A DNA stretch of 64,000 bases from a virus (lineage: Duplodnaviria > Caudoviricetes), in IMG/VR virus record IMGVR_UViG_3300046786_000930, positions 4,805 through 68,804 of that record. One strand, written 5' to 3'. This document shows positions 2,500 to 62,612 of this stretch, one piece after another (the stretch's first letter is position 1; each line of letters opens with the position of its first letter). The notes beneath the pieces were generated by a model, which saw only the letters and a list, made by a program, of their open reading frames with translations, made no database searches and was not told where the DNA came from. Both the position numbers and the translations under genes were made by a program.

Positions 2500-2643
2500 A
2501 TGATAGTTCAATCACTTAGTCACGACGGAATACATCAGATTGAATTAAGACATAACAAAAAATATGCGGTAGTAAGAGGGAGCGGTAATTGGTTCAAAGT
2601 TTTTATAAAGTGCTTAGTTAAAATATTATGGCAGAGACAATAA
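2500..2643 (+). CDS. Small hypothetical protein (47 aa, not in the ORF track)
   Basis: MIVQSLSHDGIHQIELRHNKK...KILWQRQ fills the 2485-2628 gap and overlaps the next start. Confidence 0.4.
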   Translation: MIVQSLSHDGIHQIELRHNKKYAVVRGSGNWFKVFIKCLVKILWQRQ

Positions 2644-5567
2644 ATAAAAAACCATGGGAACCTATCGAATTAGCTGATGCTGTTGGTATGGTGAGTAACC
2701 AAGTATCAGGTCCAAAGAACTCTGCTCAGTTACTAAAAAACCTTCACACCCACAGAAAACCCGGTGCATTAAGAGTGAGAAAAGGTTACACACTAAAGTA
2801 TGATTATCCTTCCGATAGTTCGATTAAGAACACATTATCAAGCGTAGCAATAACTATTGCAAGTCCAGGAGTAATAACAGAAACAAGTCATGGATTGAGA
2901 CAAGGGCAAGGGATCACCTTCAGCACAACCGGGGCGTTGCCGACTGGTTTAGTGGCCGGGACTACTTATTATGTGAATTACTTAACCGTGGATACGTTTG
3001 CGGTTAGTGCTACTTATAACGGAACGAGCATAAACACAAGTGGAACCCAAAGCGGAGTACACGCGGTTCATTACAGAGGATTTTTAACCTATGATTTCTT
3101 TTTCGACAGACAAGCATTATCAACCGGGCAAGAAGTAACATGCTTGCTTGAGAAGGGCACAGTACAACCAGTAGCGACAAGTGGAGTTACGGATACACAA
3201 AACATGCTGTGTATGTGGATAAGACCTTACTGGAACGGATCGGCCTGGACAGATGCTTGGCAATGGCTGAACAAAACAATTATCACAAGAGTAAAAGTAG
3301 AGAGTGATTCGACTTATCCTAATATGATAATTGCGTTTGATAGTTTTAGCTTAAGCGATGATGCCTTGGTGGGATGGACTATTTACAATAAAACAAAAGG
3401 ACAATATGCGAAAATAATTACTTCTAAAATTCAAGTAGGGCACACAAGAATTGTTCATACGGCTTACGATAGTTATTGGGAAGAAAACGATGTTTTGTTA
3501 ATAATGAAAAACTTCGTTGATCTTACAGCAATGGCAGAACTATACACAGCAACTTGGGATGAGATACAGTTCCATCATGTGAATAATGACTTAAGAATAG
3601 GATTTGGTGGTAAGGCGAATAGGCCGGGATTGATGGTAGGTTATAGAAAAAGTTATTTAATGCTGAATCAATTTGATTTTACGGCTTCACATGCTGATTT
3701 GACAAGTGCAGCATTACTAGCTTTTGCTACTAACGATGCGGTGATCCTAGATACCCATGTAGCAGATAAAAATTTATTCGGAGTTGATCTAACTGCAACT
3801 AGCGGAACCCTTACAGCAAACACATATTATTTTCGCTTAACCGGGTTAATAGATGGGTATCAGGAACAACTATTAGCTGAAAATGAAATAATTGTTGCCG
3901 GTGGGGATGATGATATTAAAATTTATCCTTTTGCCTATATCAACAAATTAAGTACAAGGATAACACAATTAAATTTATATAAAAGCACTGATCAGACCAC
4001 TTGGTATAAGGTCAAGACGAATCCTTTAAGAACCGATACGTTCCTAAATACTACATGGAAAATAGACGAACAAGGCAGAATAATTATTATTGAAGCTGCA
4101 GATCTAATAACAGACGATAATGCAGCGAAACCAACAAGCGATACTAATAGTATTGGTGGATGGTCAGCACAGGATACTTGGGGATGTAGTTTTGAGTCTG
4201 AAGATGATGATGTAGGGCAGGTGAACGGTGTAACAATGACAATCGCAAGTCCATGTGTGCTAACAAAAGCGAACCATGGATTAGCTGATGGGCAGAAAAT
4301 AAGATTGTATACAACCGGAGCTTTACCAACTGGTTTAGTTGCTGATACTGATTATTTCGTAAAATGGGTTGATGCAAGTACGTTCAAATTAGCTGGAACT
4401 TATGGAGGAGCGGATATAAACACTTCCGGATCTCAATCTGGATCTCATCATCTATATTGCGGATTACGAACTCCTCAGAATGGAAGTTATTTCTTATTAT
4501 GGAAGAATACTCAATATTATTCTATGATAATGAAATTAACCTCTCCAATAATTACTTATACAACTCAAAAAGTTAGTGTAAGTTTTTATGTAAAAACCAA
4601 TGTTAGCGGGATAGTGTTAAAAATAGGTTCAACCTCACCTTATCCTAATCCATTCGGAAGTGGAGAAGATGATGTAGAATATCAAGAAGTCACGTTATCA
4701 AATGATGGAAGTTGGCATCAGCATTCAGTAACGATGAATCTTTATGGAAAATTATTATTACAAGCGAGCGCAGATGCTTTAGGGAATACAATAACAAGAA
4801 TAGGAATAGATAATATTGTCATTCAATCGGCAGATTATTTGTTGGGTAATTTATCAAACGGAACCGAGATGAACTCTGAGTTAGGATACACTCCTACTTA
4901 CAACTTAGTCAAAGGATGGGATCAGGCGTTAGAGTATAACAAAAGAGTTTATTATTTGAATCCTTACGTTGAAAAGAGATACGAAAACTATATTTTGGTA
5001 AGCCACATCCATTCAAGCGGCGCTTACATGTATGATTTGGCATCGTTCAGTAATTTTCGCGAGTTAGAGAAATTCGACAGCAACAAAACTTTAGGTATGG
5101 CGTTATTGCCTACAAATGAATTATTGATACTAAAAGATAAATCAGTTGTAAGCATTGATCCAGACACCGGAGCGGGCAGAGAACCATTGTTCGGGATTTC
5201 ATGTGTGACCTTAAATAGCATAGCAAATCTTGGTGGAATAATACTTTGGTGCGGATTATTTGACATTTACATTATGAACGTAGGCAACGGTTATAACGTG
5301 AAGGGATTACTTAAGGACACCATCCTTGATAAATATCTTGATGCTTCAGTTATTCCAGACAAGACAAAGATACAAGCCGTGAGAGACAAACACAACTCTT
5401 ACAGAATTAGGATCTATGACGCTACAAACAAAACTGAGTTTTTATTAACAGAAAACGGCTGGATACAAGAAGTTAAGAATCATTTCCCCGAAATCCATAG
5501 GACAGACGGTAATGATCAGCTTACGTTTATGAATGATGGAAACATTTACACAATCGAAAACGAGTAA
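2628..5567 (+). CDS. Tail muzzle/stabilization protein (P22 gp10/T7 gp12-like), apparently lacking its C-terminal domain
   Basis: The N-terminal SAQLLKNL...PGALRVRKGY pattern, beta-rich propeller-like C-terminal half, size and position fit. It contains two copies of a ~75-aa inserted module. Confidence 0.6.
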   Translation: MAETINKKPWEPIELADAVGMVSNQVSGPKNSAQLLKNLHTHRKPGALRVRKGYTLKYDYPSDSSIKNTLSSVAITIASPGVITETSHGLRQGQGITFSTTGALPTGLVAGTTYYVNYLTVDTFAVSATYNGTSINTSGTQSGVHAVHYRGFLTYDFFFDRQALSTGQEVTCLLEKGTVQPVATSGVTDTQNMLCMWIRPYWNGSAWTDAWQWLNKTIITRVKVESDSTYPNMIIAFDSFSLSDDALVGWTIYNKTKGQYAKIITSKIQVGHTRIVHTAYDSYWEENDVLLIMKNFVDLTAMAELYTATWDEIQFHHVNNDLRIGFGGKANRPGLMVGYRKSYLMLNQFDFTASHADLTSAALLAFATNDAVILDTHVADKNLFGVDLTATSGTLTANTYYFRLTGLIDGYQEQLLAENEIIVAGGDDDIKIYPFAYINKLSTRITQLNLYKSTDQTTWYKVKTNPLRTDTFLNTTWKIDEQGRIIIIEAADLITDDNAAKPTSDTNSIGGWSAQDTWGCSFESEDDDVGQVNGVTMTIASPCVLTKANHGLADGQKIRLYTTGALPTGLVADTDYFVKWVDASTFKLAGTYGGADINTSGSQSGSHHLYCGLRTPQNGSYFLLWKNTQYYSMIMKLTSPIITYTTQKVSVSFYVKTNVSGIVLKIGSTSPYPNPFGSGEDDVEYQEVTLSNDGSWHQHSVTMNLYGKLLLQASADALGNTITRIGIDNIVIQSADYLLGNLSNGTEMNSELGYTPTYNLVKGWDQALEYNKRVYYLNPYVEKRYENYILVSHIHSSGAYMYDLASFSNFRELEKFDSNKTLGMALLPTNELLILKDKSVVSIDPDTGAGREPLFGISCVTLNSIANLGGIILWCGLFDIYIMNVGNGYNVKGLLKDTILDKYLDASVIPDKTKIQAVRDKHNSYRIRIYDATNKTEFLLTENGWIQEVKNHFPEIHRTDGNDQLTFMNDGNIYTIENE
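2841..4460 (+). repeat. Two diverged copies of a ~75-aa module inside the muzzle gene (about 2841-3075 and 4227-4460)
   Basis: TIASPG..HGL..TTGALPTGLVAGTTYYV..INTSGTQSG versus TIASPC..HGL..TTGALPTGLVADTDYFV..INTSGSQSG. Confidence 0.85.
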
Positions 5568-5573
5568 ACACTT

Positions 5574-7787
5574 ATGAAGAAATTATTTTTAATTATAGCG
5601 TTTATTTTTGTGGGGTGTATATCGGGACAGAATATTCGCATCGACCAAGTTAAGGAGTTGCCAGACACAATAGCGTATCTTAGGAACCTCCATGCAATGG
5701 GAGATACAAATACAGTACAAGCCTTTATAAGAGATTCTCTCGGAAGGTTTTGGGATTCAACAGAAGTAAAAGCCGCGATAGGCGACAGCACAACCGCAAC
5801 CGATGCAAGATTAAGCGATTCAGTTGGTGTACTCAATACGAGAATAGATTCTGTAATTAACAATTTAGGTGAGGGTGGTGTTGACACACTTACACAAAAT
5901 ATTACTATCCTTAATTATGGGCAGTTTTCTACACCGGAACAATATTTAATCTATCAAAGCGACACTACTGTTGCCATACAAAGATGTGGTGATTCGGTAG
6001 GTACGAGACAAATACTTTTAACAGGACAATATACAATAAGAGATAGCATCAAGTGGGACTTAGCTGGCGGTGAAATGGATATAATTTTTGCCAAAGATGC
6101 AAAGATTACCTCTGCCGATAATGTACCTTCAACCGATTACTATCATCCTATTGGAGAAATTATAATTATAAATGGTAAGCGAGTGGGGATTACTGGTGGG
6201 GAATTGTATGGTTATACTTCGGCAACAAATGTATTCCAGAGTGTTTTGTGTATCAGAGATATAGATATTGTTACTCTTAAAAACTTAACTGTCAGACGTG
6301 GGAAATATGCGGGAACTTTTATAGTAAATCCTCATAATCTTGATGTAGATAATTGTTTCATGGATTCAAGTCATTATGCAAATTTATTAATAGGGAATTC
6401 CAAGCAATCAAATATTTCAAAGGGAGAATATTCTTATGCGGGGTATGATGTAGTTGCTAATCCCGATACTGGATATGGAATAAGTTTTATCGGTAGATAC
6501 GTTTATCCGCCTGGAAGTTCAGGGAACTTTAACAATGAAAATATTACTGTGAATAGTGTAAAAGCAAATTACAACTCTCGTAAAGGAGTAGATGCACACG
6601 GAGGGCAGAACATTACATTTACAGAAAACAAAGTAAAAGGTTTTGGAAGTTGTGGAATTTATGCGGTGAATGAAGATGGTAATACCGGATATGAGAAACA
6701 TGTTAGGAACGTGATAATAAGTAACAACACAGTTACTCAAGACTCTTTATGGTTAGAAGGATTATTAGGCAACAGAACCTCTCTTTATCTAACGACAGGG
6801 AGAACGGTTTTGGATAGTCTTTATTGGTGGAATGCAATCCAAGTAGGAGATTACCAAAGTTCAACAACCACACAGATGTATCCTTCGGGAACATTTACAG
6901 TACAGGGGAATACTTTAGATTCAATGAATTCAAGAGGGGCAAGAGCACCCTTATCTGTATTTGTGGCTATAACAAAATTGGTTGGTTATCCAAGACCACA
7001 AATAGATGCAATTAATATTCTAAACAATACCATTCTATATCCTAATGTAACCACTGATGAATTTGATGGTGAACAAGATGCTGTTATTTATTTTACCAAC
7101 GGTACTGTTCCTCCAAGATTTGTTAATGTAAGCGGAAATAATATTTTTAGAGATACCTTACAAAGCACGGCAAATAATGGAATTAAGTTAGCGTTTACAA
7201 ATCCAGGTTCATGGAATCTTGTAGAGACAAATGATAGTTTGTTTAACCAGATCGTGAATGTAAACAACAATAATGTTTATGGCTATTTTAATTATCCTTT
7301 ATTCATAAGTTCAAACAACATTAAGCAAGTTACGTCCAACAACACTTATAATGGGAATCGACTTGCAGATATGGATGATGCTTATAACGGGGTTAAAAAA
7401 TTTACGTTCCATGCAGTTGCGGCGGGTGATTCAATTACGTTAGTTGATAGTGTGAAAATAACAGCTTCTTTAGATGGGATGACTGTTTATAATATTAAGA
7501 TTACTTCTTCAAATGATGTTGATAAGGGGATTAATGTTTATAATTACATAGCATACGCAAAAGACACAACCACAGTAGAAGGCAACCCAATGGCTACTGC
7601 TGCAACGATTATGAACGAATCTGGAATCGGTGGGTATACAGAAACAGACAGACCTACATTAACATGGAGAACAAGCGGTAATGTAGGCACATTAAAACTA
7701 TTTGATAGTAACAGCGATGGGTATTCAAAATATAATATTGAGATGATAATAACCTCAAGGAACGTACCTTATTGGAGGAGCGAATAA
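5574..7787 (+). CDS. Signal-peptide-bearing right-handed beta-helix (tailspike/pectin-lyase-like) protein
   Basis: MKKLFLIIAFIFVGCISG|Q signal peptide. Asn-rich NITVNSV/NVIISNNTV/NILNNTI beta-helix rungs. Confidence 0.7.
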   Translation: MKKLFLIIAFIFVGCISGQNIRIDQVKELPDTIAYLRNLHAMGDTNTVQAFIRDSLGRFWDSTEVKAAIGDSTTATDARLSDSVGVLNTRIDSVINNLGEGGVDTLTQNITILNYGQFSTPEQYLIYQSDTTVAIQRCGDSVGTRQILLTGQYTIRDSIKWDLAGGEMDIIFAKDAKITSADNVPSTDYYHPIGEIIIINGKRVGITGGELYGYTSATNVFQSVLCIRDIDIVTLKNLTVRRGKYAGTFIVNPHNLDVDNCFMDSSHYANLLIGNSKQSNISKGEYSYAGYDVVANPDTGYGISFIGRYVYPPGSSGNFNNENITVNSVKANYNSRKGVDAHGGQNITFTENKVKGFGSCGIYAVNEDGNTGYEKHVRNVIISNNTVTQDSLWLEGLLGNRTSLYLTTGRTVLDSLYWWNAIQVGDYQSSTTTQMYPSGTFTVQGNTLDSMNSRGARAPLSVFVAITKLVGYPRPQIDAINILNNTILYPNVTTDEFDGEQDAVIYFTNGTVPPRFVNVSGNNIFRDTLQSTANNGIKLAFTNPGSWNLVETNDSLFNQIVNVNNNNVYGYFNYPLFISSNNIKQVTSNNTYNGNRLADMDDAYNGVKKFTFHAVAAGDSITLVDSVKITASLDGMTVYNIKITSSNDVDKGINVYNYIAYAKDTTTVEGNPMATAATIMNESGIGGYTETDRPTLTWRTSGNVGTLKLFDSNSDGYSKYNIEMIITSRNVPYWRSE

Positions 7788-8242
7788 TGAAAAAAATAAT
7801 TTTATTTATAATGCTATTATTTACCTCCTATTCTTTTGCGCAAGATACAAAGTTCTTTGGTACGGTAGAGGCAGATACCTTAGTTGGGTTCAAAGCCGAT
7901 ACCCTAAGCTATTCTTGGGGAATAATGGACACCGTAACAACTGGTGATTTGCCAGGGTGGAAAGTTCCTACTGATATTACAATTATAGAAGTTAGTGGAT
8001 ACACAGATGCTAATACAGTAACTTTTAATATTGAAGAACGGACAGAAGCAACCCCAAATACTGCTGCTGCGACTGATGTCATGGATACCGATTTGGCAGC
8101 AGATGTAAATCAAGAGGAAGCAAGTGGGGTTGATCTTGATAACGTTGCAATAGCAAAAGATTCTTGGTTAGTTCCTACAATTAGTGCAACTGGTGATGTA
8201 GCAATATTTGGAATTACAATACGTTATGTTAAAGTATATTAG
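7787..8242 (+). CDS. Signal-peptide-bearing small beta-sandwich (fibre-associated-like) protein
   Basis: The ATG at 7787 overlaps the upstream stop. MKKIILFIMLLFTSYSFA|Q signal peptide. The C-terminal AIAKDSWLVPTISATGDVAIFGITIRY resembles fibre-associated beta-sandwich domains. Confidence 0.65.
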   Translation: MKKIILFIMLLFTSYSFAQDTKFFGTVEADTLVGFKADTLSYSWGIMDTVTTGDLPGWKVPTDITIIEVSGYTDANTVTFNIEERTEATPNTAAATDVMDTDLAADVNQEEASGVDLDNVAIAKDSWLVPTISATGDVAIFGITIRYVKVY

Positions 8243-11009
8243 TCTAATTTTCATATTGTGTTTTGAACTATTCCCGCAAGGAAATATGCTTGTTAATCGC
8301 AAGCATTATTGGGATAGTTTGGTACTAATAGTTCCTGATACTTCTACGAATATTTACGTAGATGGTAACAATGGGCTTGATGCAAATGATGGATTAACTG
8401 GGGCGACTTCGAAATTGACCTATCCGGCTGGTGAAGCGTTGGTAAATGCAGTAACAGATACAATGTTTTTAACTGGAACGTTTGATTATCCATTTCCCAA
8501 AACCAAGACATTCGTTATCGCCACTTATGGAGATTTTAATTATACGAATGGATTAAACGGATATACTTATGTACCAGGTGCAGAAGGTGGGGCGGTTGTA
8601 GATACGTTTTACGTTGGTTCTGGAACTGATGATAAAACAAGGGCTGGCACTACTGGATTGTTTGATTTGGAATATTTGAATATGGGTGCTCAGTATTCTA
8701 ATGTAAAGGTTGCGACAAGATTTGTGAACGTAGTTGAACGTTCTGGATATGATTCTGCATTGATTGAATACACTGCCTATGATTCTCATACTGCTGATGA
8801 TATTGTTTTAAGATTCTATGGTGAGGATTTGGGAAACCCTCCTACATTCGGAACAGGCTATGCGGACTTTGATGTAAGGTATGAAACACTAACAACTGCT
8901 TATAAAGACACTACATTTCAAACCGACTGGGTTAATGGGACTAATTATAAATTTAGATTAGGCGGTGTTATCGGAGAACTGTTTACAAACTACGCTTATA
9001 CTGGTTCACAAGCAATTACGATATTTAATGTAAATAATGGTTCAACCTCAAGTACTTTTAGAAGTGCAAGTGCTTATGATTTAAGCTCCGGTGCTGAGAA
9101 GGCAAAGCTGATAATTTATTCAGATGGTACTGCTTCTAATGCTTACTATTGGAAAGATCAAACAACTGAGGTTACTGCTGTTTATTTTGGATCTGAATTG
9201 GGAACCGAGAATACAGATAAAAGTTTGATTGATTCTACAAAAGAATGGTGTTGGAGTGGAGATACGCTTTATATTTACGGCGAAGTATTACCACCTTCGG
9301 GAACTGCCGATAAATATGTTTGTGATTTATGTGTAGATGTAGATGCAGTTGATGATTCAGCGACTACTATTGCAGAAGTGAACGCATGGACTTTAGTGGG
9401 TGGGGATACGGTTGCAATTAAAATAAATGAAGTTCGTGATGACGCTATTCTTGTTCCTCAGAACAACGTGGTATATACTTCTTATGGCGGAGATGGGAGA
9501 TACATTTTACAACACTCAGACCTAACAAACGAACAGCACGTAGTAAATGCTCAAAATATAAGCGGAGCAACTATTGAAAATGCGGAGATAATCGGTAAGA
9601 ATTGGGTTATTGTAAATGGGAGTTCTGGTTTGACTTTTGATAATATTTATTGCCATCATTATGAAAACACTAATTATCATTTCCCGCATGATGGACGCGG
9701 AATGTTCACCGCCATTGGTACACAAGCACTATACCTAACTATTCAAAACAGTATCTTTGAAAGTGGATTTCCCATTGCAGCTTCAGAATGCGGAGATCAA
9801 GATTCTGTTTGCACAAGCGATATGTTTTCTCTTTGGAATGCCGGAGGTGGCGGAAGTGGCTATATCTATTTCTACAATAATATTTTTAAGAATGCGCCCC
9901 ATAGTTTAATTGGCATTGGTCAGGGTGGAAGCGAGAAGGTATCTCATCACATTTTAATAAGACTGAATAGGTTCTACAATCAGTATCATCACGGAGTTTA
10001 TGATATAGATCAGGGAACAACTACGGCAAAAGATAGTTGCATAATTGTTGATTTTAATCTTTTTGAACGTAGTGGAAGTGGATTAAGACAAAGTGCAACA
10101 AATAATTTTGTCCAGTATAATAGAGAACTGGGGGCTTTTGGTGTAGCTGGTGGCAGTAATATTGTAAGGTACAATGTAATTAAAAGAACCTCATGCAGAA
10201 GAAATGAATGGAACAATGCTGGTGGAGTGCAGTTTGGCAGTGATATTTATAATCTAAGAATGTATAACAATGTTCTTGATAGTTCTTATGGTATGGCAAT
10301 GAGGTTTATTTATAGTGCGGGAAGCACTAAATTTGAGAACAACTATTTTTTCAACAATGCCTTCACAAGAAGTGGAGACCCTAATTGGGAAACTTATTAT
10401 CCAGGTATTGACGGTGATAGTGTTGCAATAATTTATTGGGATGATAATGCCGGAAGTCCATCAAATAACATTTTTAGTTATAGCTATTTTGGTACATCAA
10501 GTAACAATCTATTAAATCTCTTGGCGGGTGATTTAGAAACAACAAATAGCACCGCGTGGACTGGTGTTACGTTCCAGAATAATCTTAATGGCTATCGCAC
10601 CACTTCAGTATTCGATGCACCAGATGACAGCATTCCAAACTGGACTTACTGGACACCTCAAACAGTAAGAGGTAATTTGTATGATAGTGTTCTGGCTAAT
10701 TACAATGGCAAAGCACCTTTGATAGATGCGGGCAGACCACACACCTACATTAGCGGAACTGTAAATAACGATACCATCCTTGTAACTGATTCAAGAGTAT
10801 TTTTTGACGGCTGGAATTGGCAAGAACTTGAGGGAGATAGTCTTTTAATTGGCACTTATAGAGTTCAAGTAATAGGAATAAACTATACAACAAATTACAT
10901 AGCATTAAGTGGGATAGTTGATGTTGCAGATAACACTCCGGTGTATCTGATTAACCCCTACACACATGATGCTTATAAAGAAACTGAAATAGATATAGGT
11001 TTAGAATGA
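8226..11009 (+). CDS. Signal-peptide-bearing beta-helix (pectin-lyase-like) protein
   Basis: MLKYISLIFILCFELFP|Q signal peptide. It has a YVDGNNGLDANDG motif, repeated FYNNIF/VRYNVI/MYNNVL rungs and APLIDAG near the C-terminus. Confidence 0.7.
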   Translation: MLKYISLIFILCFELFPQGNMLVNRKHYWDSLVLIVPDTSTNIYVDGNNGLDANDGLTGATSKLTYPAGEALVNAVTDTMFLTGTFDYPFPKTKTFVIATYGDFNYTNGLNGYTYVPGAEGGAVVDTFYVGSGTDDKTRAGTTGLFDLEYLNMGAQYSNVKVATRFVNVVERSGYDSALIEYTAYDSHTADDIVLRFYGEDLGNPPTFGTGYADFDVRYETLTTAYKDTTFQTDWVNGTNYKFRLGGVIGELFTNYAYTGSQAITIFNVNNGSTSSTFRSASAYDLSSGAEKAKLIIYSDGTASNAYYWKDQTTEVTAVYFGSELGTENTDKSLIDSTKEWCWSGDTLYIYGEVLPPSGTADKYVCDLCVDVDAVDDSATTIAEVNAWTLVGGDTVAIKINEVRDDAILVPQNNVVYTSYGGDGRYILQHSDLTNEQHVVNAQNISGATIENAEIIGKNWVIVNGSSGLTFDNIYCHHYENTNYHFPHDGRGMFTAIGTQALYLTIQNSIFESGFPIAASECGDQDSVCTSDMFSLWNAGGGGSGYIYFYNNIFKNAPHSLIGIGQGGSEKVSHHILIRLNRFYNQYHHGVYDIDQGTTTAKDSCIIVDFNLFERSGSGLRQSATNNFVQYNRELGAFGVAGGSNIVRYNVIKRTSCRRNEWNNAGGVQFGSDIYNLRMYNNVLDSSYGMAMRFIYSAGSTKFENNYFFNNAFTRSGDPNWETYYPGIDGDSVAIIYWDDNAGSPSNNIFSYSYFGTSSNNLLNLLAGDLETTNSTAWTGVTFQNNLNGYRTTSVFDAPDDSIPNWTYWTPQTVRGNLYDSVLANYNGKAPLIDAGRPHTYISGTVNNDTILVTDSRVFFDGWNWQELEGDSLLIGTYRVQVIGINYTTNYIALSGIVDVADNTPVYLINPYTHDAYKETEIDIGLE

Positions 11010-14000
11010 AAAAATACTTATTTATAATTTTCGCATTGACAACCTTCGCAAGTTTTGGGCAGAGTAACTTATTACTATTCTTTGATGATGACAAAGAAGC
11101 TCCTTCAGTTCCAACCTCACCAAGTGCAGTAGGAACTCCCGAAGTAGTTACTGCGAGTTGGGTAGATCCAACTGCCTTAGATTTGAAATGGATTATAGTT
11201 TACCGTGATGTAACAACAAATCCAACAACTGCAATAGATACTGTTCTAAAGGGAGTTGGTTCTTATACTGATACTCCATTAGTTGCTGGAACAGAATACT
11301 TTTATCGTTTTAGAGCACAAGATTATTCTGGTAATTTATCCGCATACACTTCAACTGTTAGTGATACAGCTAAGGCAATACAGTACGCTGGTGATTATGA
11401 TGGGAGTACGGATTATTTATCATTAGCCACTCCGCCTTTACAAATGATGGGCAAATATAGCTTGCAAGAAACATTCTCAGATGGTGATTACACTACTGGT
11501 AATGCTTGGACTGTTTCTTCTGGTGCTTATGCAGTAACTGATACAGTAGCTATGTATAGCGGACTTACTTATGCTTTAAGATGTGCAACTGCGGGGATAA
11601 TTTCAATCCCTAATAATTGGGCTTATGGATATGTGGCTTTTGATTGGCGTAAAGGTGGTTCGACCAATATAAATTATGTCTATTTAAATAGTAAAAGTTC
11701 AAATACTTCAACTAACGGCTATGCTTTATATACTTCGGCAACTTCAAGGCAAACCCTAAGCATTGTTAATAGTGGGGTACATAATACGTTATTTTATTCT
11801 GGGGCAAGCTATGTAAACAATTTTGTTTCTTACCGTGACAGCATAGTAAGAAACACTAATGGCTCATTTTCCGTTTACATTAAGGGTGGAACATTTGGAG
11901 ATACTTATACTTTAGTTTCAACTACCGGAGGCAGTGGTACTAATCCAGTAACAGACAACACTTACACACAATCAAATTACTTTGTACTTGATTTAGATGC
12001 TGGCGATATGATAGCAAACATTGTCTGTGAATATGGTATGGGCAGTATGGATTTGAATGGACATGAACTTACAAAGTACCCAACTTATAATGCAAGTTTT
12101 GAAGTTGGAGATGAAGTAATAACCAATGGAAGTTTTGGGAGTAATATAACTGACTGGACTGCCGGTGGTTCAACAGCAAAGTGGTATAATACTGATTGGA
12201 ATGCTGTCTCAAGAACAAACGCTATTTTAGACTCGGCAACACTTACAGATCAATCCTATCTCATTGCAACTTATGGGACAACATCTGGTGTTAGATATAA
12301 ATTAACTTATACATATTATATCCCAGCAACTAACACAACTTGTGTTGCAGTAAAAACAAGATATATTGGCGGGAGTAATCCTTATGGAACAATTCAAACA
12401 GTAGTTGGTACATGGACAACCGCATCTGAATATGTTACTCCATCCACAAATTATACTCAGATTCGATTTTATCAATTTGATGCTGGTGGAGCGTATAATA
12501 CTTCTGCTGGCGATAAAATCTACATTGACGATGTATCAATCAAACCAGTACCATATTGGGAAGGTAGTGGCACAATGTCTGTTGATACCACAACAGAGCA
12601 AAAGCAAAGTGGTAGTGGAGGAGCGAAGTTTGTTCAGAGTTTGGGGAGTGATTTAGCTTTATCTCATGGTGATTTTACTGATGCAGCAGATACATTATGG
12701 TGGACAGATGGAAGTGATGCTTGGATTATGACTGGTGGAGTTGCAAGTGCTTCGGGTACATCTTCTCATTTAAGAGGAGCAATTGGCGGGTTGGCAAATA
12801 ATAAATATATGATTGAATTTGATGCAACGATTACATCCGGTAGTTTGTTATGGCAAATAGGTGGTTCGCATTCTGAGAGTGCTCATTCAGTAACGTCTGG
12901 ACATAATATTGGGTATTGTAATACAAGTGGAAGTGGAGATATTTATTTTATCCCTTCATCTTTTGTCGGAACACTTGATAATATAGTTATTTATAAATCT
13001 TCTGGCGACACCACAACGAACTATGCAAAACTTGACCACAGTTATTATAATACTTTAGTTGCTGGTGAAAAAACAACTCTTGAGTATTGGGCACAAGAGG
13101 ATGGTAGTAATGGAAGTAATTTAATACCAGATTCAGCTTCTACTTTTAGCACTTATCCAGGTGGAGGAATAACTTATTGGACTGCGGTAAGAGGAACGCG
13201 TGCATGGAGTACCGCAGATTCGTCATTATTATGGACTTACGATGGTTCAAGTAGTAGTCCAAGAGGTATAAGTAAATCTGGAAATTTAACGGTTGGAAAA
13301 CTTTACAAACTAACCTTTAGGGCAAAAGCAGATTCTAATAGAAATTATACGCTTAGTTTTCTTGGGGATATAACTTCTGGTGGCTATGGCGCAGTAACTC
13401 CTAATTTAACTACTGCTTGGCAAAATTATCAAAAATATTTTACTGCAACAGCAACAAGTTTTTATCTTGGTAGTGCGAGCACATCTGGGATGACTTTAGA
13501 TGATAGTGTTATGATAGATAACATAGTATTGCAAGAAATCACCAAAACCACTCACACAGTATCAGTAGGCGGTAAAGTATTAGGCACGACAGATACTCTT
13601 TCATGTATTCCAGGTGTATTTGAGAAGGTAGTATTTAACTTCCTCAATGATGCAACAACTGTTAATGGTGACATAAAGATTTACAAGAACCAAGCTTCTA
13701 TTGGCTACATGGACGGAAATTCAATCACGCAAGCAAAAGACTTGATGGTGAATGTGTGGGTAAAAACGAGTAATGTTGGTTCAAATTTACCGATTATCTA
13801 TTATCGGGGAATAAGCGGTGCCTTTTGGCAAGTGCTAAGAAGTTCGAGCAATTATTATCGAGCAGACTTAAATGATGGTGTAACTAATGTTACACTTAAC
13901 ACAGCGTCAACTTATACAAGTGATATTTACGTGTTTGTAAGTTTTCTGATCAGTCGTACAACTAATGGCTTGGTGTATATCAATGGAGCTCTTTCAAATA

Positions 14001-14311
14001 CTGGAAATTTTACTACGATTGGTAAAGTAACAAACAATTATCCCCTAAACATTGGAGGCTATTCAACCATATATTTTACTGGTCAAATCGGTGGAATACA
14101 GATAACAACCTTTGCCGACATATCAACAGTAAACTATACCCCAGCACAGATTTACAGTTTGTCCAAATATAACGGACAATACTTTCCAAGAACTTACACT
14201 GGAGGGACTGAGGTGCTTTACATGAAGATGGATGATGCAACTGATGAGTCAGCTTATGGTCATGTGTTTACAAATAATGGTACAGTAACTTTTGGAACGG
14301 TAACTTATTAA
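11006..14311 (+). CDS. Signal-peptide-bearing FN3 + carbohydrate-binding-like + LamG/concanavalin-like protein
   Basis: MKKYLFIIFALTTFASFG|Q signal peptide. FN3 (APSVPT..LVAGTEYFYRFRAQDYSGNLSA), ITNGSFGSNITDW-type CBM-like repeats, and a LamG-like C-terminus (GLVYINGAL...PLNIGG...FTGQIG). Confidence 0.75.
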   Translation: MKKYLFIIFALTTFASFGQSNLLLFFDDDKEAPSVPTSPSAVGTPEVVTASWVDPTALDLKWIIVYRDVTTNPTTAIDTVLKGVGSYTDTPLVAGTEYFYRFRAQDYSGNLSAYTSTVSDTAKAIQYAGDYDGSTDYLSLATPPLQMMGKYSLQETFSDGDYTTGNAWTVSSGAYAVTDTVAMYSGLTYALRCATAGIISIPNNWAYGYVAFDWRKGGSTNINYVYLNSKSSNTSTNGYALYTSATSRQTLSIVNSGVHNTLFYSGASYVNNFVSYRDSIVRNTNGSFSVYIKGGTFGDTYTLVSTTGGSGTNPVTDNTYTQSNYFVLDLDAGDMIANIVCEYGMGSMDLNGHELTKYPTYNASFEVGDEVITNGSFGSNITDWTAGGSTAKWYNTDWNAVSRTNAILDSATLTDQSYLIATYGTTSGVRYKLTYTYYIPATNTTCVAVKTRYIGGSNPYGTIQTVVGTWTTASEYVTPSTNYTQIRFYQFDAGGAYNTSAGDKIYIDDVSIKPVPYWEGSGTMSVDTTTEQKQSGSGGAKFVQSLGSDLALSHGDFTDAADTLWWTDGSDAWIMTGGVASASGTSSHLRGAIGGLANNKYMIEFDATITSGSLLWQIGGSHSESAHSVTSGHNIGYCNTSGSGDIYFIPSSFVGTLDNIVIYKSSGDTTTNYAKLDHSYYNTLVAGEKTTLEYWAQEDGSNGSNLIPDSASTFSTYPGGGITYWTAVRGTRAWSTADSSLLWTYDGSSSSPRGISKSGNLTVGKLYKLTFRAKADSNRNYTLSFLGDITSGGYGAVTPNLTTAWQNYQKYFTATATSFYLGSASTSGMTLDDSVMIDNIVLQEITKTTHTVSVGGKVLGTTDTLSCIPGVFEKVVFNFLNDATTVNGDIKIYKNQASIGYMDGNSITQAKDLMVNVWVKTSNVGSNLPIIYYRGISGAFWQVLRSSSNYYRADLNDGVTNVTLNTASTYTSDIYVFVSFLISRTTNGLVYINGALSNTGNFTTIGKVTNNYPLNIGGYSTIYFTGQIGGIQITTFADISTVNYTPAQIYSLSKYNGQYFPRTYTGGTEVLYMKMDDATDESAYGHVFTNNGTVTFGTVTY

Positions 14312-14353
14312 CAGTTCACAACGGAACACGGTATAGCTGTAAGGAAAGAAGAA

Positions 14354-14689
14354 ATGAATAATTTAACAGTATGGCACGGAATCTCGGTATTGTCCGTAAT
14401 TTTGAGTACAGCAATAATGATTGTTGGGTATTTTATTAAGAAATGGATGAAAAGAGTGGAGGTACAGTTGGAGAAGTTAGAAGAGAATTATAAGACAATT
14501 GAAACAGAACAAAACCAGCAGAAACTAAATTACATTGATAGATTCCAAAGTGTTGAACTAAAGATTGAACGTACTGAGAAAAACATTATAAATGTAATCA
14601 ACGATTTGAAAGACCATATTACTGAAACATTTGTATCAAAGAGTTTTTGCCAATTTATTCAAGAACATAAGCCAAAAGGAAATTTTTAG
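14354..14689 (+). CDS. Membrane protein with N-terminal TM and coiled coil; holin/antiholin-like
   Basis: Hydrophobic ISVLSVILSTAIMIVGYFI followed by a coiled coil, upstream of the endolysin. Confidence 0.45.
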   Translation: MNNLTVWHGISVLSVILSTAIMIVGYFIKKWMKRVEVQLEKLEENYKTIETEQNQQKLNYIDRFQSVELKIERTEKNIINVINDLKDHITETFVSKSFCQFIQEHKPKGNF

Positions 14690-14779
14690 TGACGGTAAGA
14701 ATACCATTCTTAAAAATGACACAAAACAAGCATAGCATGCCCCCAAACATTCTTGCCGTCATTGTTTTTAGAGGACAAA

Positions 14780-15175
14780 ATGAATTATGAAATCAAACAT
14801 ACAGATGACGTAGAGGAGGCAATTGTGCTAATCTTTTCGGGACTATTATTTTTCTTAAAGAATCACACCAAGAAAACCATCATAGCGATATTATTGATTT
14901 GTGGTTCAATAGTTTATGTTGCTTTTGATTATTTTACCTCAGACAAAATTAAGATGGAACGACTGAAACCATTAACAGAAGAAATAAGTTTGTTCCCTAA
15001 TTTATACGCACAAGGTAAAAATCCAATTATTTTTGATGGCAAATATTACGGAGAACAAGATACAGACTACATAATTTATAAACTTAGGTACTCTGACGAA
15101 CTGATAATTTACAACAAACGCCTAAAGTATGGGTATAAAATTGAGATACCGGCTTTGGAGAAATTTAAAAAATAA
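14780..15175 (+). CDS. Membrane-anchored hypothetical protein in the lysis region
   Basis: AGAGGA Shine-Dalgarno before the ATG at 14780. Hydrophobic segments AIVLIFSGLLFFL and IIAILLICGSIVYVAF. Confidence 0.5.
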   Translation: MNYEIKHTDDVEEAIVLIFSGLLFFLKNHTKKTIIAILLICGSIVYVAFDYFTSDKIKMERLKPLTEEISLFPNLYAQGKNPIIFDGKYYGEQDTDYIIYKLRYSDELIIYNKRLKYGYKIEIPALEKFKK

Positions 15176-15188
15176 GAGGAATAGTAAA

Positions 15189-15647
15189 ATGAAAAAACTA
15201 ATTTTTGCGTTGATCTTAATTCCGGTAATAGTTCTCAAAGCCCAATATACTTATCCGGACTTTGAAATAGCGGATTCGTTAAAAGGCGGAACAGATACCA
15301 CACAGATTATAAACACGAATTACGGAGGAGGTAATCCTTTCGGGATTGGAGAATGGTGGATCGCGGCCAAAGATACTGGAAGCACCTATACGGATAGTGT
15401 CGCGGTATTCGCGGGATGGATTAGACGTAACCCAAGGAGCTATGCTGTGACAGACACCTTTTGGACAAGGATAATGTTCAAGGACAGCGCCTGGAACGTT
15501 ATTAATGTACTAAACGCACCGGCTACAGAGAGTTCCTGGACGCCGTTAATGAACATGCCGTTTCTGCTAAAGCTAACAATGATAAACGCACAGTTTGTAA
15601 ATAGCAGGCGTTGGGATTTTGCTATTCAGGGTAAAAAACTGAAATAA
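15189..15647 (+). CDS. Signal-peptide-bearing small beta-rich protein
   Basis: GAGGA before the ATG at 15189. MKKLIFALILIPVIVLKA|Q signal peptide. Confidence 0.65.
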   Translation: MKKLIFALILIPVIVLKAQYTYPDFEIADSLKGGTDTTQIINTNYGGGNPFGIGEWWIAAKDTGSTYTDSVAVFAGWIRRNPRSYAVTDTFWTRIMFKDSAWNVINVLNAPATESSWTPLMNMPFLLKLTMINAQFVNSRRWDFAIQGKKLK

Positions 15648-16030: not shown

Positions 16031-16543
16031 ATGAATCTTGTATGGACACACAAAGTAAGTTCAGATTTCGTAAAGAAATTATTAAGGATTTGTATAGTCC
16101 TTAGAGTTGATCCGGATTCTTTGATGTCATGTATGGCATTCGAAACAGGGGAAACATTCTCCCCTTCGATTAAGAATAAAAAATCCGGTGCAACGGGCCT
16201 GATACAATTCATGCCATCAACTGCCGGTGCTTTGGGTACATCCGTTGAGGACTTAGAAATTATGACCGCAGAAGAACAGTTAGATTTTGTGGAGAAATAT
16301 TTTCTGCCGTGGAAGGGAAGGTTACAAACGTTGGAAGATGTTTACATGGCGATATTATTTCCAAAAGCGATTGGTAAACCGAATAATTATATTTTGTTTG
16401 CAAAAAATGATGTTAAGTATCCGAAACGGTATATTCAGAATTCTGGTTTAGATTATAATAAAGACGGATACATAACGAAGGAAGAAGCTGCAATGAAAGT
16501 GAAAGAAAAACTTATCAAAGGACAGAAGTTATTAAATGGCTGA
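16031..16543 (+). CDS. Endolysin, lysozyme-like/lytic transglycosylase fold
   Basis: MAFETGETF (catalytic Glu), GATGLIQFMPSTA, QLDFVEKYF and VYMAILFP motifs of SLT-like phage lysins. No signal peptide. Confidence 0.85.
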   Translation: MNLVWTHKVSSDFVKKLLRICIVLRVDPDSLMSCMAFETGETFSPSIKNKKSGATGLIQFMPSTAGALGTSVEDLEIMTAEEQLDFVEKYFLPWKGRLQTLEDVYMAILFPKAIGKPNNYILFAKNDVKYPKRYIQNSGLDYNKDGYITKEEAAMKVKEKLIKGQKLLNG

Positions 16544-34182: not shown

Positions 34183-34512
34183 ATGATACATATTTACTTG
34201 CCTTACTTTGTTTTAGTTCTTGTCGCTTGTTTGGGGATGGGTTTGTTCGGTGGTTATTTGTGGGGAAGGGGATTTAGAGGCGGGGCGATAGCAGATACGA
34301 ATGATTTTAATATCCTACTTAAAGCCGAACAGAAGAAACGAGAAAAGATTGAAGCCAAACTTAAAATAGAAATGCTTCATAGTAAGGAATTAGAGGATAC
34401 GCTTGAGATTATGACACAGAACGATGCTGATAGTGTTCATCAAACCTTTACCGAAATGAATGAACACCACAACAAAGTTTTATTTGATCCGGAAAGCGAG
34501 AGGAGTGCATGA
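34183..34512 (+). CDS. Membrane-anchored hypothetical protein
   Basis: AAGGAG Shine-Dalgarno, an N-terminal TM and a coiled coil. Confidence 0.55.
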   Translation: MIHIYLPYFVLVLVACLGMGLFGGYLWGRGFRGGAIADTNDFNILLKAEQKKREKIEAKLKIEMLHSKELEDTLEIMTQNDADSVHQTFTEMNEHHNKVLFDPESERSA

Positions 34513-48212: not shown

Positions 48213-48442
48213 AAACAGCAACAAAATTTTGGCAAGAGAAATTCAATGAATTACCACAAAATGATGCTGAAAAATTGGCGGTGGCAATGATGGCAGAATA
48301 TGCCGCCGAACACGACCAAGGGATAATCCAGATGATTGATGAGGTAAAGGAAATGTTGCATAGCAGATTAGATATTACGGTATTAGAAGTTCAACACATA
48401 CTCACCGAACTCAAGCAAAAGATATTGGAGGGAAAGAAATGA
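48209..48442 (+). CDS. Small hypothetical protein
   Basis: GTGA overlap; coupled ORF. Confidence 0.5.
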   Translation: MKTATKFWQEKFNELPQNDAEKLAVAMMAEYAAEHDQGIIQMIDEVKEMLHSRLDITVLEVQHILTELKQKILEGKK

Positions 48443-48903
48443 AAACAATATTCTGGATACTATTTTGCAGCACTTTATTGGTTGCGCAAACAGACAAACT
48501 ATGTGAACAAAGAGGACACGTTAGACCAGATGTTACAAGCGTAACCGACATGTATTTCCCGCCGAGATATGTGGACTTAGCAGATAGAACTCTTATGATT
48601 ACTTGGGATCAGAACATAGTTTCATATACTTGTTTGCGTTGCGGTGAAGAAGTCCGAGAGCCAGTTCAAGAGAAACCAGACACGACAATAATTTGGAAGG
48701 GGATAGAAGAATATCGGGATTGTGAGCGTATGTTGAATGTGGCAGAAGCAGAAATCTCCCGATTAAAGTTTGAGATTGAAATTAAGGACTGGCAAATTGA
48801 GGAATTACGAAAGCAACTGGAAGAAAATTTAGAGGCGTTCTTAAAAGTACAAATGCTCTTTGATGCGTATGTGAAACTAACAGACAAAGAAGGTGAAAAA
48901 TGA
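48439..48903 (+). CDS. Signal-peptide-bearing protein with Cys/His motifs and a coiled-coil C-terminus
   Basis: MKTIFWILFCSTLLVA|Q signal peptide; CEQRGH and CLRCG motifs. Confidence 0.55.
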   Translation: MKTIFWILFCSTLLVAQTDKLCEQRGHVRPDVTSVTDMYFPPRYVDLADRTLMITWDQNIVSYTCLRCGEEVREPVQEKPDTTIIWKGIEEYRDCERMLNVAEAEISRLKFEIEIKDWQIEELRKQLEENLEAFLKVQMLFDAYVKLTDKEGEK

Positions 48904-49367
48904 ATATAAAATTTATTATCGCTGGTATAGTATCAATTATCTTCATGGGTTGTTGCGGAACGAGATACGTCCAGAATGAGAGAATTGAGCAAATCAAACC
49001 AGACAAGATAGAAGCAGTGTTCCCCTCAAATCAAATTGTGGGCAAGATAGACACAGTTACTTTGGCTACTGTTTATGAAGCAAGCACGGTAACGCCCAAA
49101 GGTGACTCGGTTAAGGTAAAAATCAAGATGAAGCCAAAACCAATTCTTGCGGATACTATTTGGCATGATATCGATTCTCTCTATGTGGACATAACCCCTC
49201 ATTGGATTGGTGATCTTGATACTAATTTTACACCAGTTAAACCCGACACAGTTATAGTAAAACAAGTTCCGGTGATTGGTTATATAGCTTTTGGGATTGT
49301 CACTTTGGCTTTAATCGTAATAATAATAGTCGTCTGGAAGTTTGGGAAAATTAAGATTGGCACATAG
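48900..49367 (+). CDS. Lipoprotein with a C-terminal TM; unimolecular spanin-like
   Basis: Lipobox FMG|C, a beta-rich middle and a C-terminal TM (IGYIAFGIVTLALIVIIIVVW) followed by basic residues. Confidence 0.6.
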   Translation: MNIKFIIAGIVSIIFMGCCGTRYVQNERIEQIKPDKIEAVFPSNQIVGKIDTVTLATVYEASTVTPKGDSVKVKIKMKPKPILADTIWHDIDSLYVDITPHWIGDLDTNFTPVKPDTVIVKQVPVIGYIAFGIVTLALIVIIIVVWKFGKIKIGT

Positions 49368-53620: not shown

Positions 53621-55759
53621 ATGAAAAACCGATCTTTCAAAATAAACGATGAAGATTGTCTCTTCAACATGATGAGGCTTTGGACTTCGCTTGATCCTAT
53701 CTTTGAGCAACTTAATAAGGACCAGACCAGAGCATTTGATATGACAGTTAGTTCAAGTCAATGGCTCCAAGAGTGGAAGGATGCGTATGAACAGAAGGGC
53801 AGGCAAGTAAGCAGCTACAACCTTCTCAGGCAAGTAATTAACGTTATCAACGCAATAGAATTGAGCAACCGGAAAAAGATAATAGCCAAACCATCTAGCG
53901 GAGGTGACACAGAGCTCGCGGGAATAGTTACAGAAGTTCTTGATCACTTTCTCCATCGCACAAAGTTTGACTGGAGGAGAACGAAAGTATTTAACAACAG
54001 CATCATTGCAAAGTTCGGGGTTTATACTTTGGGTTGGAGTTTTGAGAATAACAAGTATGGTGACTTAGAGATTGGTGATTGCGATCCTCGGACGGTAAGG
54101 TTTGAACCTAACTACGCAGATCCTACTTGGGAGCAAGCTGGTTACGTTATGCGGAAACACCAACTAAGCTTTGATGAGATCTTCAACAAATTTGCGGGTA
54201 ACGATGAGGAAATGCAAGAGGCACTTATCAGCGAGGGGAAAGTTTTCTACGATTATAACCCGGACAAAAGAGATAAGTACCTAACACAAAAACTCAAACA
54301 CCTATTTCAAGCTGTGTATGAAACGATAACTGGCAGCAGCCCTAACAGCACAGTCAGCAAGTTTATGAATTGGTATGATCCGCTAACAGGCAAATTTGAT
54401 GTTTTAGAGTTGCACGAAAAAAGAACAGAGCGGAGATTAGTAATCGGGGACAGCAAAAGACCGAATAAACTGTTCGACATTACCGACAGCTACCATGGAG
54501 AGTTTGAGCGACTTAATGAGAAACCACCCGATGGGTACAGGTACAATAACGGTGAGATAATTAACAGCATTAAAGAGCGATACGGCTTTGATGGTGAGCC
54601 TGATATGGAACTCACCACTAATAAATATGTAACAGCAGTAATCCCGGCATTCCGGCTGAAGGTAAATGAGCAGCCCTATCCATTCAAGATTAAGGGTTAT
54701 GTTTATATTCCTCAGTATTGCTATGACTATCATGCCGACACACTGAAGGCACAGAGCGTTATTGACGATTTAATTGATCCACAAAGCTCTTATAACAAAA
54801 TGATTAGTCTGAATCAAGAATTATTGTGGAAGTACGCGAACAATGGCTGGATACTTGATGCTAATGCGATTAACGGTTATGAGGAAGATTGGGAGAGCGG
54901 AAGATTGGCTCCTTATCGCAGAGTGAGACCGGGATACATTAACTTGATAAAGCCCGAAATTCAGCAGACCGTATCCCCGGACCTGATAAAGGGGATGCAA
55001 GAAACACCCGCGATCATGGATAGGATTGCGAACACATCGGAATCCATAAGAGGCAGAATTGAGAAGGGCGTAACTTCCGGCAAACATTTTAATGCAGTAA
55101 GAAGTCAGGAAGAAAAATCATTCAGCTATATGTTTAACAACGTAAGCAACTCTGCTTTGTCTGTAGCCGAATCAGGCTGGGCAATAATCCAGAACAGAGT
55201 TACGGTTCCAAGGATATTCAGGATAACGCAAGATGATGGCCAAGAAAAAGAAGTAAGGGTAAATGAACAGCAGTACGGAATCGATGTAGAAACCGGCAAC
55301 CTGATAAGGAAAGTAAAGAACGACATCACCATAGGCGAGTATGACTTCGAAATCAGCGATACACCGTATAGCGGCAATGCTAAGGAAATGGAATTCTACA
55401 AGTTGAGTGAGTTGCTTGATGCGCTGATATCGATAGGTACACCGAAGTCCATGGAGAGAGCAGACGCAATAATGCCGATACTCGTTCAAGCCGGTAGTTT
55501 CCCATTTGGTAATGAAATTAAAAAAACTTGGGAACAGATTGACTCCGGTAGTCCTCAGCAGCAACAGTTACAGCAGATGATGATGGCTATTCAGCAGATC
55601 ATGGCAAAGCTCGGAGTGAAGGGACAGGAAGAAACCGTAAGAGGACAGATTCTCGATAACACGAAAAAAGATATTGAGATCAAGCAAATGCTTAAGGACA
55701 ATATCCTTAACGTAAAGCGTGGTAACGGTAAAGCGAAACCACAGTATCAGTTGAATTGA
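53621..55759 (+). CDS. Portal protein (P22-like)
   Basis: Position after terL, size, the SYNLLRQVIN...NRKKIIAKP...D.ELA pattern, an IDDLIDPQ..YNK segment and a Q-rich C-terminal barrel. Confidence 0.85.
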   Translation: MKNRSFKINDEDCLFNMMRLWTSLDPIFEQLNKDQTRAFDMTVSSSQWLQEWKDAYEQKGRQVSSYNLLRQVINVINAIELSNRKKIIAKPSSGGDTELAGIVTEVLDHFLHRTKFDWRRTKVFNNSIIAKFGVYTLGWSFENNKYGDLEIGDCDPRTVRFEPNYADPTWEQAGYVMRKHQLSFDEIFNKFAGNDEEMQEALISEGKVFYDYNPDKRDKYLTQKLKHLFQAVYETITGSSPNSTVSKFMNWYDPLTGKFDVLELHEKRTERRLVIGDSKRPNKLFDITDSYHGEFERLNEKPPDGYRYNNGEIINSIKERYGFDGEPDMELTTNKYVTAVIPAFRLKVNEQPYPFKIKGYVYIPQYCYDYHADTLKAQSVIDDLIDPQSSYNKMISLNQELLWKYANNGWILDANAINGYEEDWESGRLAPYRRVRPGYINLIKPEIQQTVSPDLIKGMQETPAIMDRIANTSESIRGRIEKGVTSGKHFNAVRSQEEKSFSYMFNNVSNSALSVAESGWAIIQNRVTVPRIFRITQDDGQEKEVRVNEQQYGIDVETGNLIRKVKNDITIGEYDFEISDTPYSGNAKEMEFYKLSELLDALISIGTPKSMERADAIMPILVQAGSFPFGNEIKKTWEQIDSGSPQQQQLQQMMMAIQQIMAKLGVKGQEETVRGQILDNTKKDIEIKQMLKDNILNVKRGNGKAKPQYQLN

Positions 55760-57746: not shown

Positions 57747-57844
57747 ACTTTGATAAAGAGATATTTGTTGGTAGGATAGTAGCGGTGATATTTTTTCTGC
57801 TAATGCTATTCGTTCTGTTTGCACCATATTTTGTTAAGTGTTGA
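57740..57844 (+). CDS. 34-aa TM mini-protein (not in the ORF track)
   Basis: MLNFDKEIFVGRIVAVIFFLLMLFVLFAPYFVKC; its TGA overlaps the ATG at 57844. Confidence 0.4.
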   Translation: MLNFDKEIFVGRIVAVIFFLLMLFVLFAPYFVKC

Positions 57845-58575: not shown

Positions 58576-58850
58576 AAAAAACTTTAGTTCGTTGGAAAAT
58601 ATATACAGATAGGGCACGTTGGTATGTAGCGTATGTGCAATTTCTTATGATGGTTATAGTTGTATTTCAAACAAGAGGAGTTTTACTTGATTGGTGGTTA
58701 ATAATTTTATTGATCCCGGTAGTGGTAATTGCTTTTATTGTGATAGGGTTTATAGATGTTAAAATATTTAAGTTATTAGAAGCCGAGCAACAAAAATATG
58801 CAGAAGAAAACCCTACGCTTCAACAAATACTAAAAGAAGTTAAAAAATGA
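58572..58850 (+). CDS. Small two-TM membrane protein
   Basis: Two hydrophobic segments and ATGA overlaps. Confidence 0.6.
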   Translation: MKKTLVRWKIYTDRARWYVAYVQFLMMVIVVFQTRGVLLDWWLIILLIPVVVIAFIVIGFIDVKIFKLLEAEQQKYAEENPTLQQILKEVKK

Positions 58851-62410: not shown

Positions 62411-62598
62411 AAACAACAGTAGAGTTTAATTTTAATTTCGGGGACAAGGTTTGGGTTATTGAGTTAGCTTGTTATGGTAGGGTTTTAAGTTGTTGGTACA
62501 CACGAAGCGGTAAACAATATGAGGTTAGATATTTTCACAATGGAGAACACTTAACAACTTATATATTTGAAGAAGAACTATCAGATAAAAAATTATAA
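62407..62598 (+). CDS. Small SH3-like phage protein
   Basis: FNFGDKVWV...YEVRY...IFEEEL pattern. Confidence 0.55.
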   Translation: MKTTVEFNFNFGDKVWVIELACYGRVLSCWYTRSGKQYEVRYFHNGEHLTTYIFEEELSDKKL

Positions 62599-62612
62599 AT
62601 GAAGGAATAAAA

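Follow-up and report, generated by a model that had tools for sequence, protein, structure and literature searches.

An uncultured podovirus encodes a set of spike-like proteins that carry N-terminal signal peptides (leaders) and an excess of the Bacteroidota O-glycosylation sequon. The best explanation is that these proteins are exported and O-glycosylated in the host periplasm, and that their sequons are kept by selection; we regard this explanation as probable. The phage is represented by the complete virus record IMGVR_UViG_3300046786_000930 (68.8 kb), which is flanked by direct terminal repeats. The 64 kb of it analyzed here is called the window, and nearly all window genes lie on the + strand. 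The main block is located at 5574-15647, and the proteins are denoted by the start positions of their genes (e.g., p5574). Four translationally coupled genes (737, 151, 927, and 1101 residues) occupy 5574-14311. Next come small membrane proteins, a 152-residue leader protein (15189), and an SLT endolysin (16031).

The sequon, D-[ST]-[AILVMT], was counted by regular expression on translated open reading frames, and the expectation for each protein was taken from 2000 composition-preserving shuffles. Every count given in a preliminary description of this DNA was reproduced exactly, controls included. The sequons number 18 in p5574 (10 of them within residues 31-157), 14 in p8226, 11 in p11006, 3 in p7787, 4 in p15189, and 5 in p48900, and the controls hold 2 (979-residue protein), 0 (17152 fiber), 1 (712-residue portal), and 4 (4453-residue protein). 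The expectations are 3.3 for p5574 (z 8.7), 4.1 for p8226 (z 5.2), 0.44 for p15189 (z 5.6), and 0.57 for p48900 (z 6.0). When the seven signal-peptide proteins are pooled, 56 sequons are observed against 16.3 expected (3.4x, z 10.6), whereas the 28 non-exported window proteins together hold 15 against 35.2 (0.43x, z −3.6). The enrichment over shuffles is thus confined to the signal-peptide proteins, as the preliminary description had proposed.

The excess is specific to the exact tripeptide. In the exported set, motifs in which Asp is replaced with Glu, Asn, Gly, or Lys occur at 0.4-1.1x, the reversed tripeptide at 1.1x, and D-[ST] followed by a non-hydrophobic residue at 0.8x. The pooled excess persists after the N-terminal 160 residues of p5574 are dropped (46 versus 15.7, z 8.0), and residues 161-737 of this protein still hold 8 sequons against 2.3 expected (p 0.0012). 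With Tandem Repeats Finder, no tandem repeat was detected in the DNA that encodes the sequon-dense N-terminal part of p5574. A tandem-repeat origin of that part was rejected, since DNA repeats are absent and the excess outlasts its removal.

The tripeptide is the motif of a phylum-wide Bacteroidota O-glycosylation system that acts on non-cytoplasmic proteins only, and the exported proteomes of most Bacteroidota are enriched in this motif (PMC12871550). For P. gingivalis, glycosylation at high occupancy is described for the majority of periplasm-exposed proteins (257 sites in 145 proteins; PMC8729774). The motif identity and the periplasmic use named in the preliminary description agree with this literature.

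An n-h-c leader is predicted from sequence on all the listed proteins and is conserved in their homologues. Gln occupies position +1 in all six leaders of the signal peptidase I (SPI) type (ISG↓Q, SFA↓Q, LFP↓Q, SFG↓Q, LKA↓Q, and LVA↓Q, where the arrow marks the predicted cleavage site), and a Gln +1 leader is also found in 25 of 70 homologues. The leader of p5574 can be read either as a lipobox-like VGC or as an SPI leader cleaved before Gln19. Leader ends with Pro-Gln are common in the spike family (P0003, P0017, P0023, P0033, P0039, and p8226 in the window), as opposed to Ala/Ser/Gly-Gln, and are unusual for SPI. The Q-rule, i.e., Gln at +1, is described by its authors as Bacteroidetes-specific (PMC5837995). 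A Por_Secre_tail protein of the type IX secretion system (T9SS) is encoded in the host flank of a prophage carrying a homologue. Because of this gene and the Gln +1 in six of six SPI leaders, we infer that the host is a member of Bacteroidota. The type IX sorting domain (Por_Secre_tail/TIGR04183) was not detected with Pfam or NCBIfam models at a threshold as loose as E 0.1. The proteins were therefore rejected as T9SS cargo for want of the C-terminal sorting domain, and the periplasm is taken as their default destination.

The arrangement of a spike, a small protein, a spike, and a 131-residue membrane protein forms a cassette that is also present on two further phage contigs. The first, L005, spans 14.5 kb and comes from a close relative. 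The second, L002, represents a temperate siphovirus (L002-L004) with tape measure and integrase genes, in which the cassette comes directly after the distal tail genes. The leader proteins hold about 43 sequons against about 13 expected in L005 and about 32 against about 11 in L002, and the leaderless neighbors on both contigs are at or below the expected count. The small protein corresponding to p7787 lies between the two β-helix genes in all three cassettes (149 residues in L005 and 132 in L002), and the p15189 homologue in L005 also has 4 sequons. Among GenBank phages, no relatives of p5574, p8226, or p11006 were found, and in the IMG/VR search the sole copies were of the L002-type siphovirus.

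The 131-residue membrane protein (window 14780-15175; L005:11656-12048; L002:17059-17454) is 75-78% identical between podovirus and siphovirus, and the adjoining spikes are 46-74% identical. Because the identity of the membrane protein exceeds that of the spikes, the spike and lysis block appears to move between phage types as a unit.

An exhaustive profile search gave 72 members of the β-helix family, and 70 homologues were compared by leader type. The 25 members with a Gln +1 leader hold 187 sequons against 72.6 expected (2.6x). The 36 leaderless members, some of which are truncated proteins of the leader lineage, hold 144 against 105.8 (1.36x), and the nine with other leaders, used as a stand-in control for exported proteins of non-Bacteroidota phages, hold 16 against 13.9 (1.15x). 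The difference in sequon load among the leader types has an indicative Mann-Whitney p of 2e-5. The sequons are also retained in evolution. In orthologues, 67% of them keep their class, in which Ser/Thr and hydrophobic swaps are allowed, versus 26% of matched X-[ST]-hydrophobic tripeptides (Fisher 7e-10, likewise indicative), and Asp is kept at 79% inside sequons versus 54% elsewhere. Eight of the 14 p8226 sequons are retained in a 41%-identical homologue. The N-terminal linkers of the homologues are unalignable, yet about three sequons are present in each.

The window leader proteins gave no direct matches in Pfam, PHROGs, or NCBIfam; p8226 itself exceeds the PF13229 (Beta_helix) cut-off with 27.8 bits, and homologues of p5574 carry PF13229 and PF05048 (NosD). 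The AlphaFold 2 model of p5574, built from a 32-sequence alignment, has a mean predicted local distance difference test (pLDDT) score of 79.7 and is composed of the leader, a low-confidence helical linker, a long β-helix, and a C-terminal β-sandwich. Its best Foldseek matches are phage tailspike depolymerases (AM24, Fri1, Sf6, and HK620), and p5574 is thus predicted by the model to have a tailspike-depolymerase fold. The p8226 model from a 4-sequence alignment was unusable (pLDDT 33.6). The p11006 protein is 53% identical to a 712-residue protein of L005 that has weak matches to PF13385 (Laminin_G_3) and PF02018 (CBM_4_9). No particle-attachment or adaptor domain was recognized after the leader with Pfam or PHROGs, and a poorly conserved helical linker is found there instead.

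The positions of the sequons in the p5574 model should be noted. In the β-helix body, only one or two of the 11 sequon Ser/Thr residues are inside strands, versus 48% of all body residues, as assigned by DSSP. The sequons thus avoid the β-strand interiors, in line with the surface exposure expected of glycosylation sites, and lie mostly in loops, helix caps, or low-confidence linkers.

Cultured Bacteroidota phages show a similar pattern in part. Sequons exceed the expectation in the envelope proteins crAss001 gp27 (4 versus 0.33) and B40-8 gp11 (5 versus 0.82), in a Hankyphage lipoprotein (2 versus 0.38), and in phage 11b gp49 (2 versus 0.44), and are near expectation in leaderless proteins of the same phages, the crAss001 tailspikes included. 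Leaderless proteins of crAss001, B40-8, and Hankyphage lie at 1.06-1.37x, and leaderless window genes (e.g., 2628-5567, 19854-33215, and 53621-55759) lie below chance. Gln +1 leaders start all of gp085-087 of Cellulophaga phage phi18:3 and gp079-083 of phi46:3. The phi18:3 proteins are annotated as virion proteins by "experimental MS/MS proteomics analysis" (tandem mass spectrometry), the basis being a note in the GenBank/RefSeq record. Because of this annotation, leader-bearing tail proteins can be said to reach particle preparations. The Cellulophaga cassette is common to podoviruses and siphoviruses at 92-94% nucleotide identity, which mirrors the exchange of the window cassette.

In the proposed mechanism, the late proteins of 5574-15647 and those at 34183, 48439, and 48900 would be sent through the host Sec pathway. 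The set would consist of two tailspike-depolymerase-like β-helix proteins, a lectin/carbohydrate-binding module (CBM)-like protein, and several small partners. Their signal peptides would be cleaved before Gln according to the Bacteroidota Q-rule, and in the periplasm the host general O-glycosylation system would modify nearly every D-(S/T)-(A/I/L/V/M/T) site. Selection would keep the sequons, the likely benefit being the one proposed for host periplasmic proteins, i.e., stability, solubility, and protease resistance.

Selection for periplasmic O-glycosylation, as put forward in the preliminary description, is well supported computationally, whereas its suggestion that glycosylation is the reason for export found no support. 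The reverse order, in which export has some other cause and the proteins adapt afterwards in the manner of host periplasmic proteins, explains the data equally well and is simpler.

Several points weigh against export with glycosylation. Cleavage and glycosylation of the window proteins, and the host phylum, are predictions from sequence. The signal peptides were assigned by a hand rule and not by SignalP, and several leaders end with Pro-Gln, an atypical −1 residue. At the level of single proteins, p11006 is marginal (11 versus 6.5, z 1.95, p ~0.05) and p7787 alone is not significant (3 versus 1.4). Part of the N-terminal excess of p5574 follows an 11-residue helical periodicity and is possibly structural, and exposure was judged from secondary structure (DSSP states) only. 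Homologue and orthologue pairs are not phylogenetically independent, so the p-values given for them are indicative. The leader-bearing spikes of a more distant relative, L010, which are in the same position as in the window, and of prophage L008 are near the expected sequon count. The eight Cellulophaga leader proteins are even depleted, with 6 sequons against 25.3 (z −4.1; L021 NC_021794:32891-38583 and L016 KC821622:30343-38945). In the reference genome contigs searched, no prophage copy or host genome was found.

The Cellulophaga depletion indicates that export alone does not predict enrichment. The sequon load is lineage-dependent, and perhaps tracks the host. Leaderless proteins of the Cellulophaga phages hold sequons at about 0.7x. 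The three exported host genes adjoining prophage L008 hold 6 sequons against 5.9 expected. L010 (IMG contig Ga0485351_000406, 65.8 kb) encodes a 925-residue protein 35% identical to the 979-residue protein and a giant-protein segment 69% identical to that of the window, and two of its tiny leader proteins (75 and 84 residues) do show a sequon excess.

The later fate of the exported proteins is a separate question. We put at about even the chance that the spikes attach to the tail at a late stage, once the inner membrane has been opened by the holin, a route that fits the finding of leader-bearing tail proteins in phi18:3 virions. Gene position and the phi18:3 proteomics favor docking, while free enzymes are favored by the missing attachment domain and the association with lysis genes; a fate as free periplasmic or released glycanases falls somewhat short of an even chance. 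A fuller picture is offered tentatively: receptor-binding spikes may be built outside the cytoplasm, Sec-exported, trimmed to pyroglutamate, and heavily O-glycosylated by the host, and may join the otherwise finished particle at the holin breach, with the sign of the sequon bias (dense in the window phage, avoided in the Cellulophaga phages) being a tunable trait of the phage surface.

The rival that survives best, though rather unlikely as a whole, accepts export and glycosylation but places the proteins outside the virion. They would be free periplasmic or lysis-released glycanases and lectins acting on host capsule, exopolysaccharide, or lipid-linked precursors, and the effect could be to keep progeny from being trapped, by stripping the cell, or to block superinfection. 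Export would separate the proteins from cytoplasmic tail assembly, and without a T9SS sorting domain their default location is the periplasm. In each of the three cassettes, the block lies next to the endolysin and holin-like genes, yet its genes occupy the receptor-binding-spike position in three phage architectures. No recognizable virion-attachment domain follows the leader, while leaderless homologues begin with typical fiber N-termini; against this, MS/MS of phi18:3 virion preparations revealed tail proteins with leaders. Leaderless fiber candidates exist in the window (the 979-residue protein with tail-fiber PHROG matches and a 287-residue fiber), but no further spike is obvious on the siphovirus contig. 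Exported tailspike-like glycanases are also made by bacteria, e.g., WceF (PMC7949094).

An improbable alternative is that the sequon excess is a by-product of fold and ancestry. Asp-Ser/Thr turns or helix caps followed by a core hydrophobic residue would arise in β-helix rungs and in the 11-residue helical repeat and be passed on among related proteins, and glycosylation would be irrelevant. Leaderless family members remaining at 1.36x would fit, as would the N-terminal sequons recurring every 10-11 residues, the many sequons that start helices or come after strands, and one sequon that overlaps a GDG-x-x-DDT-like motif common to pectate-lyase-type spikes. However, unrelated small proteins that lack this fold are equally enriched (p15189, p48900, the L005 161-residue, L002 141/286-residue, and L010 75/84-residue proteins, and crAss001 gp27), and within the one fold the enrichment follows the leader type; these two observations weaken the explanation. 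The flat counts of reversed and related tripeptides, the near-expectation counts of the leaderless crAss001 tailspikes, and the lack of DNA repeats also oppose it. That the hydrophobic N-termini are non-working signal peptides, so that the proteins stay in the cytoplasm for ordinary tail assembly and their sequons are never exposed to the glycosylation machinery, is very improbable: spike export is not known in tailed phages, Pro at −1 is atypical, and no signal-peptide predictor was used, but the n-h-c layout with Gln +1 is found in six of six window proteins and 25 homologues from several phage types, and a leader-limited sequon excess is hard to explain without periplasmic exposure.

The genes of the set and of the lysis block are collected in Table 1. 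The layout of p48900 is, as predicted from sequence, that of a unimolecular spanin, and the gene lies 33 kb from the holin/endolysin block.

Table 1. Genes of the leader-bearing proteins and the associated lysis block in the window (↓, predicted cleavage site).
Product	Coordinates	Strand	Remarks
737-residue tailspike-depolymerase-like right-handed β-helix protein (p5574)	5574..7787	+	N-terminal signal peptide; 18 sequons
151-residue protein (p7787)	7787..8242	+	SPI signal …SFA↓QD; 3 sequons
927-residue second β-helix protein (p8226)	8226..11009	+	Hydrophobic leader ending …FP↓QG; 14 sequons
1101-residue lectin/CBM-like protein (p11006)	11006..14311	+	SPI signal …SFG↓QS; 11 sequons
111-residue holin-like membrane protein	14354..14689	+	N-terminal hydrophobic segments; start of lysis block, upstream of SLT endolysin; 0 sequons
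131-residue membrane protein accompanying the cassette	14780..15175	+	75-78% identical in podovirus relative and siphovirus
152-residue protein (p15189)	15189..15647	+	SPI signal …LKA↓QY; 4 sequons
170-residue SLT endolysin	16031..16543	+	PF01464; without signal peptide; 1 sequon; ends the exported-protein/lysis block
109-residue protein with N-terminal membrane anchor	34183..34512	+	2 sequons in the soluble part, 0.19 expected
154-residue protein with coiled-coil tail (p48439)	48439..48903	+	SPI signal …LVA↓QT; 1 sequon
155-residue protein (p48900)	48900..49367	+	Lipobox FMGC and C-terminal membrane helix; 5 sequons between them

The preliminary description had framed the phage as crAss-like and called the 979-residue protein a muzzle. 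In the tblastn search, the portal matched distant non-crAss podoviruses only (Acidovorax AP1, Klebsiella LASTA, and Erwinia Pavtok), and crAss001 gave no matches with the window. A crAss-like identity was rejected on these grounds, and the muzzle label could not be confirmed. Downstream of the portal and GroES genes, 57838-63997 encodes radical SAM, Glyco_trans_1_2 glycosyltransferase, PIG-L deacetylase, ATP-grasp, GT9-like, and Asn-synthase-like proteins.

In the current view, tailed phages fold their tail fibers and spikes, and assemble them, in the cytoplasm. To our knowledge, export with periplasmic glycosylation is not an established route for such spikes, and the published literature searched contained no account of exported phage spikes rich in sequons or of host-driven periplasmic glycosylation of tail fibers or spikes. 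If the proposed mechanism is true, Bacteroidota phages use the host envelope machinery for part of their virion or host-recognition biogenesis, and recombinant spikes made in E. coli would be without their native modifications. The sequon and the Gln +1 leader would serve as sequence-only markers linking uncultured phages to Bacteroidota hosts, and the sequon-dense and sequon-avoiding leader-bearing tail proteins would give a direct handle on glycan function.

Glycosylation of phage particles has a different form in mycobacteriophages. In the work of Freeman et al. in 2023, capsid and tail-tube proteins are reportedly modified within the cytoplasm by phage-encoded glycosyltransferases, and the glycans on the structural proteins are said to alter outside recognition of the particle. 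Those phages would thus use enzymes of their own in the cytoplasm, whereas the window phage would rely on the periplasmic system of the host acting on exported proteins.

The tailspike depolymerases Sf6, HK620, AM24, and Fri1 (PDB 2vbk, 2vji, 5w5p, and 6c72) share the right-handed β-helix with p5574. Those tailspikes have an N-terminal particle-binding domain and are without a signal peptide, whereas p5574 has the leader and the sequon-dense helical linker in its place. The Cellulophaga proteins (phi18:3 gp085-087, NC_021794; phi46:3 gp079-083, KC821622) are like those of the window in being Gln +1 tail-module proteins encoded just before the lysis genes, and some are annotated as pectate lyase or tail fiber. 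They differ in that no similarity in sequence to proteins of the window was detected and in being sequon depleted rather than enriched. P. gingivalis phages also encode Q-rule gene products, which the authors interpret as making use of host secretion; the products are five small proteins without a known function, and neither glycosylation nor tail spikes are mentioned (PMC10367356).

A further likeness is to the host substrates of Bacteroidota O-glycosylation, which have the same sequon and an export signal. In these substrates as in the window, the motif is over-represented in non-cytoplasmic proteins and the sites are in soluble loop or linker regions. The window proteins differ in being phage-encoded and in that two of them are predicted to have the tailspike fold. 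Their 14-18 sequons per protein are unusually dense, since the P. gingivalis glycoproteins have about 1.8-2.2 detected sites each (257 in 145 or 312 in 145), the window figure being a count of motifs and not of detected glycans.

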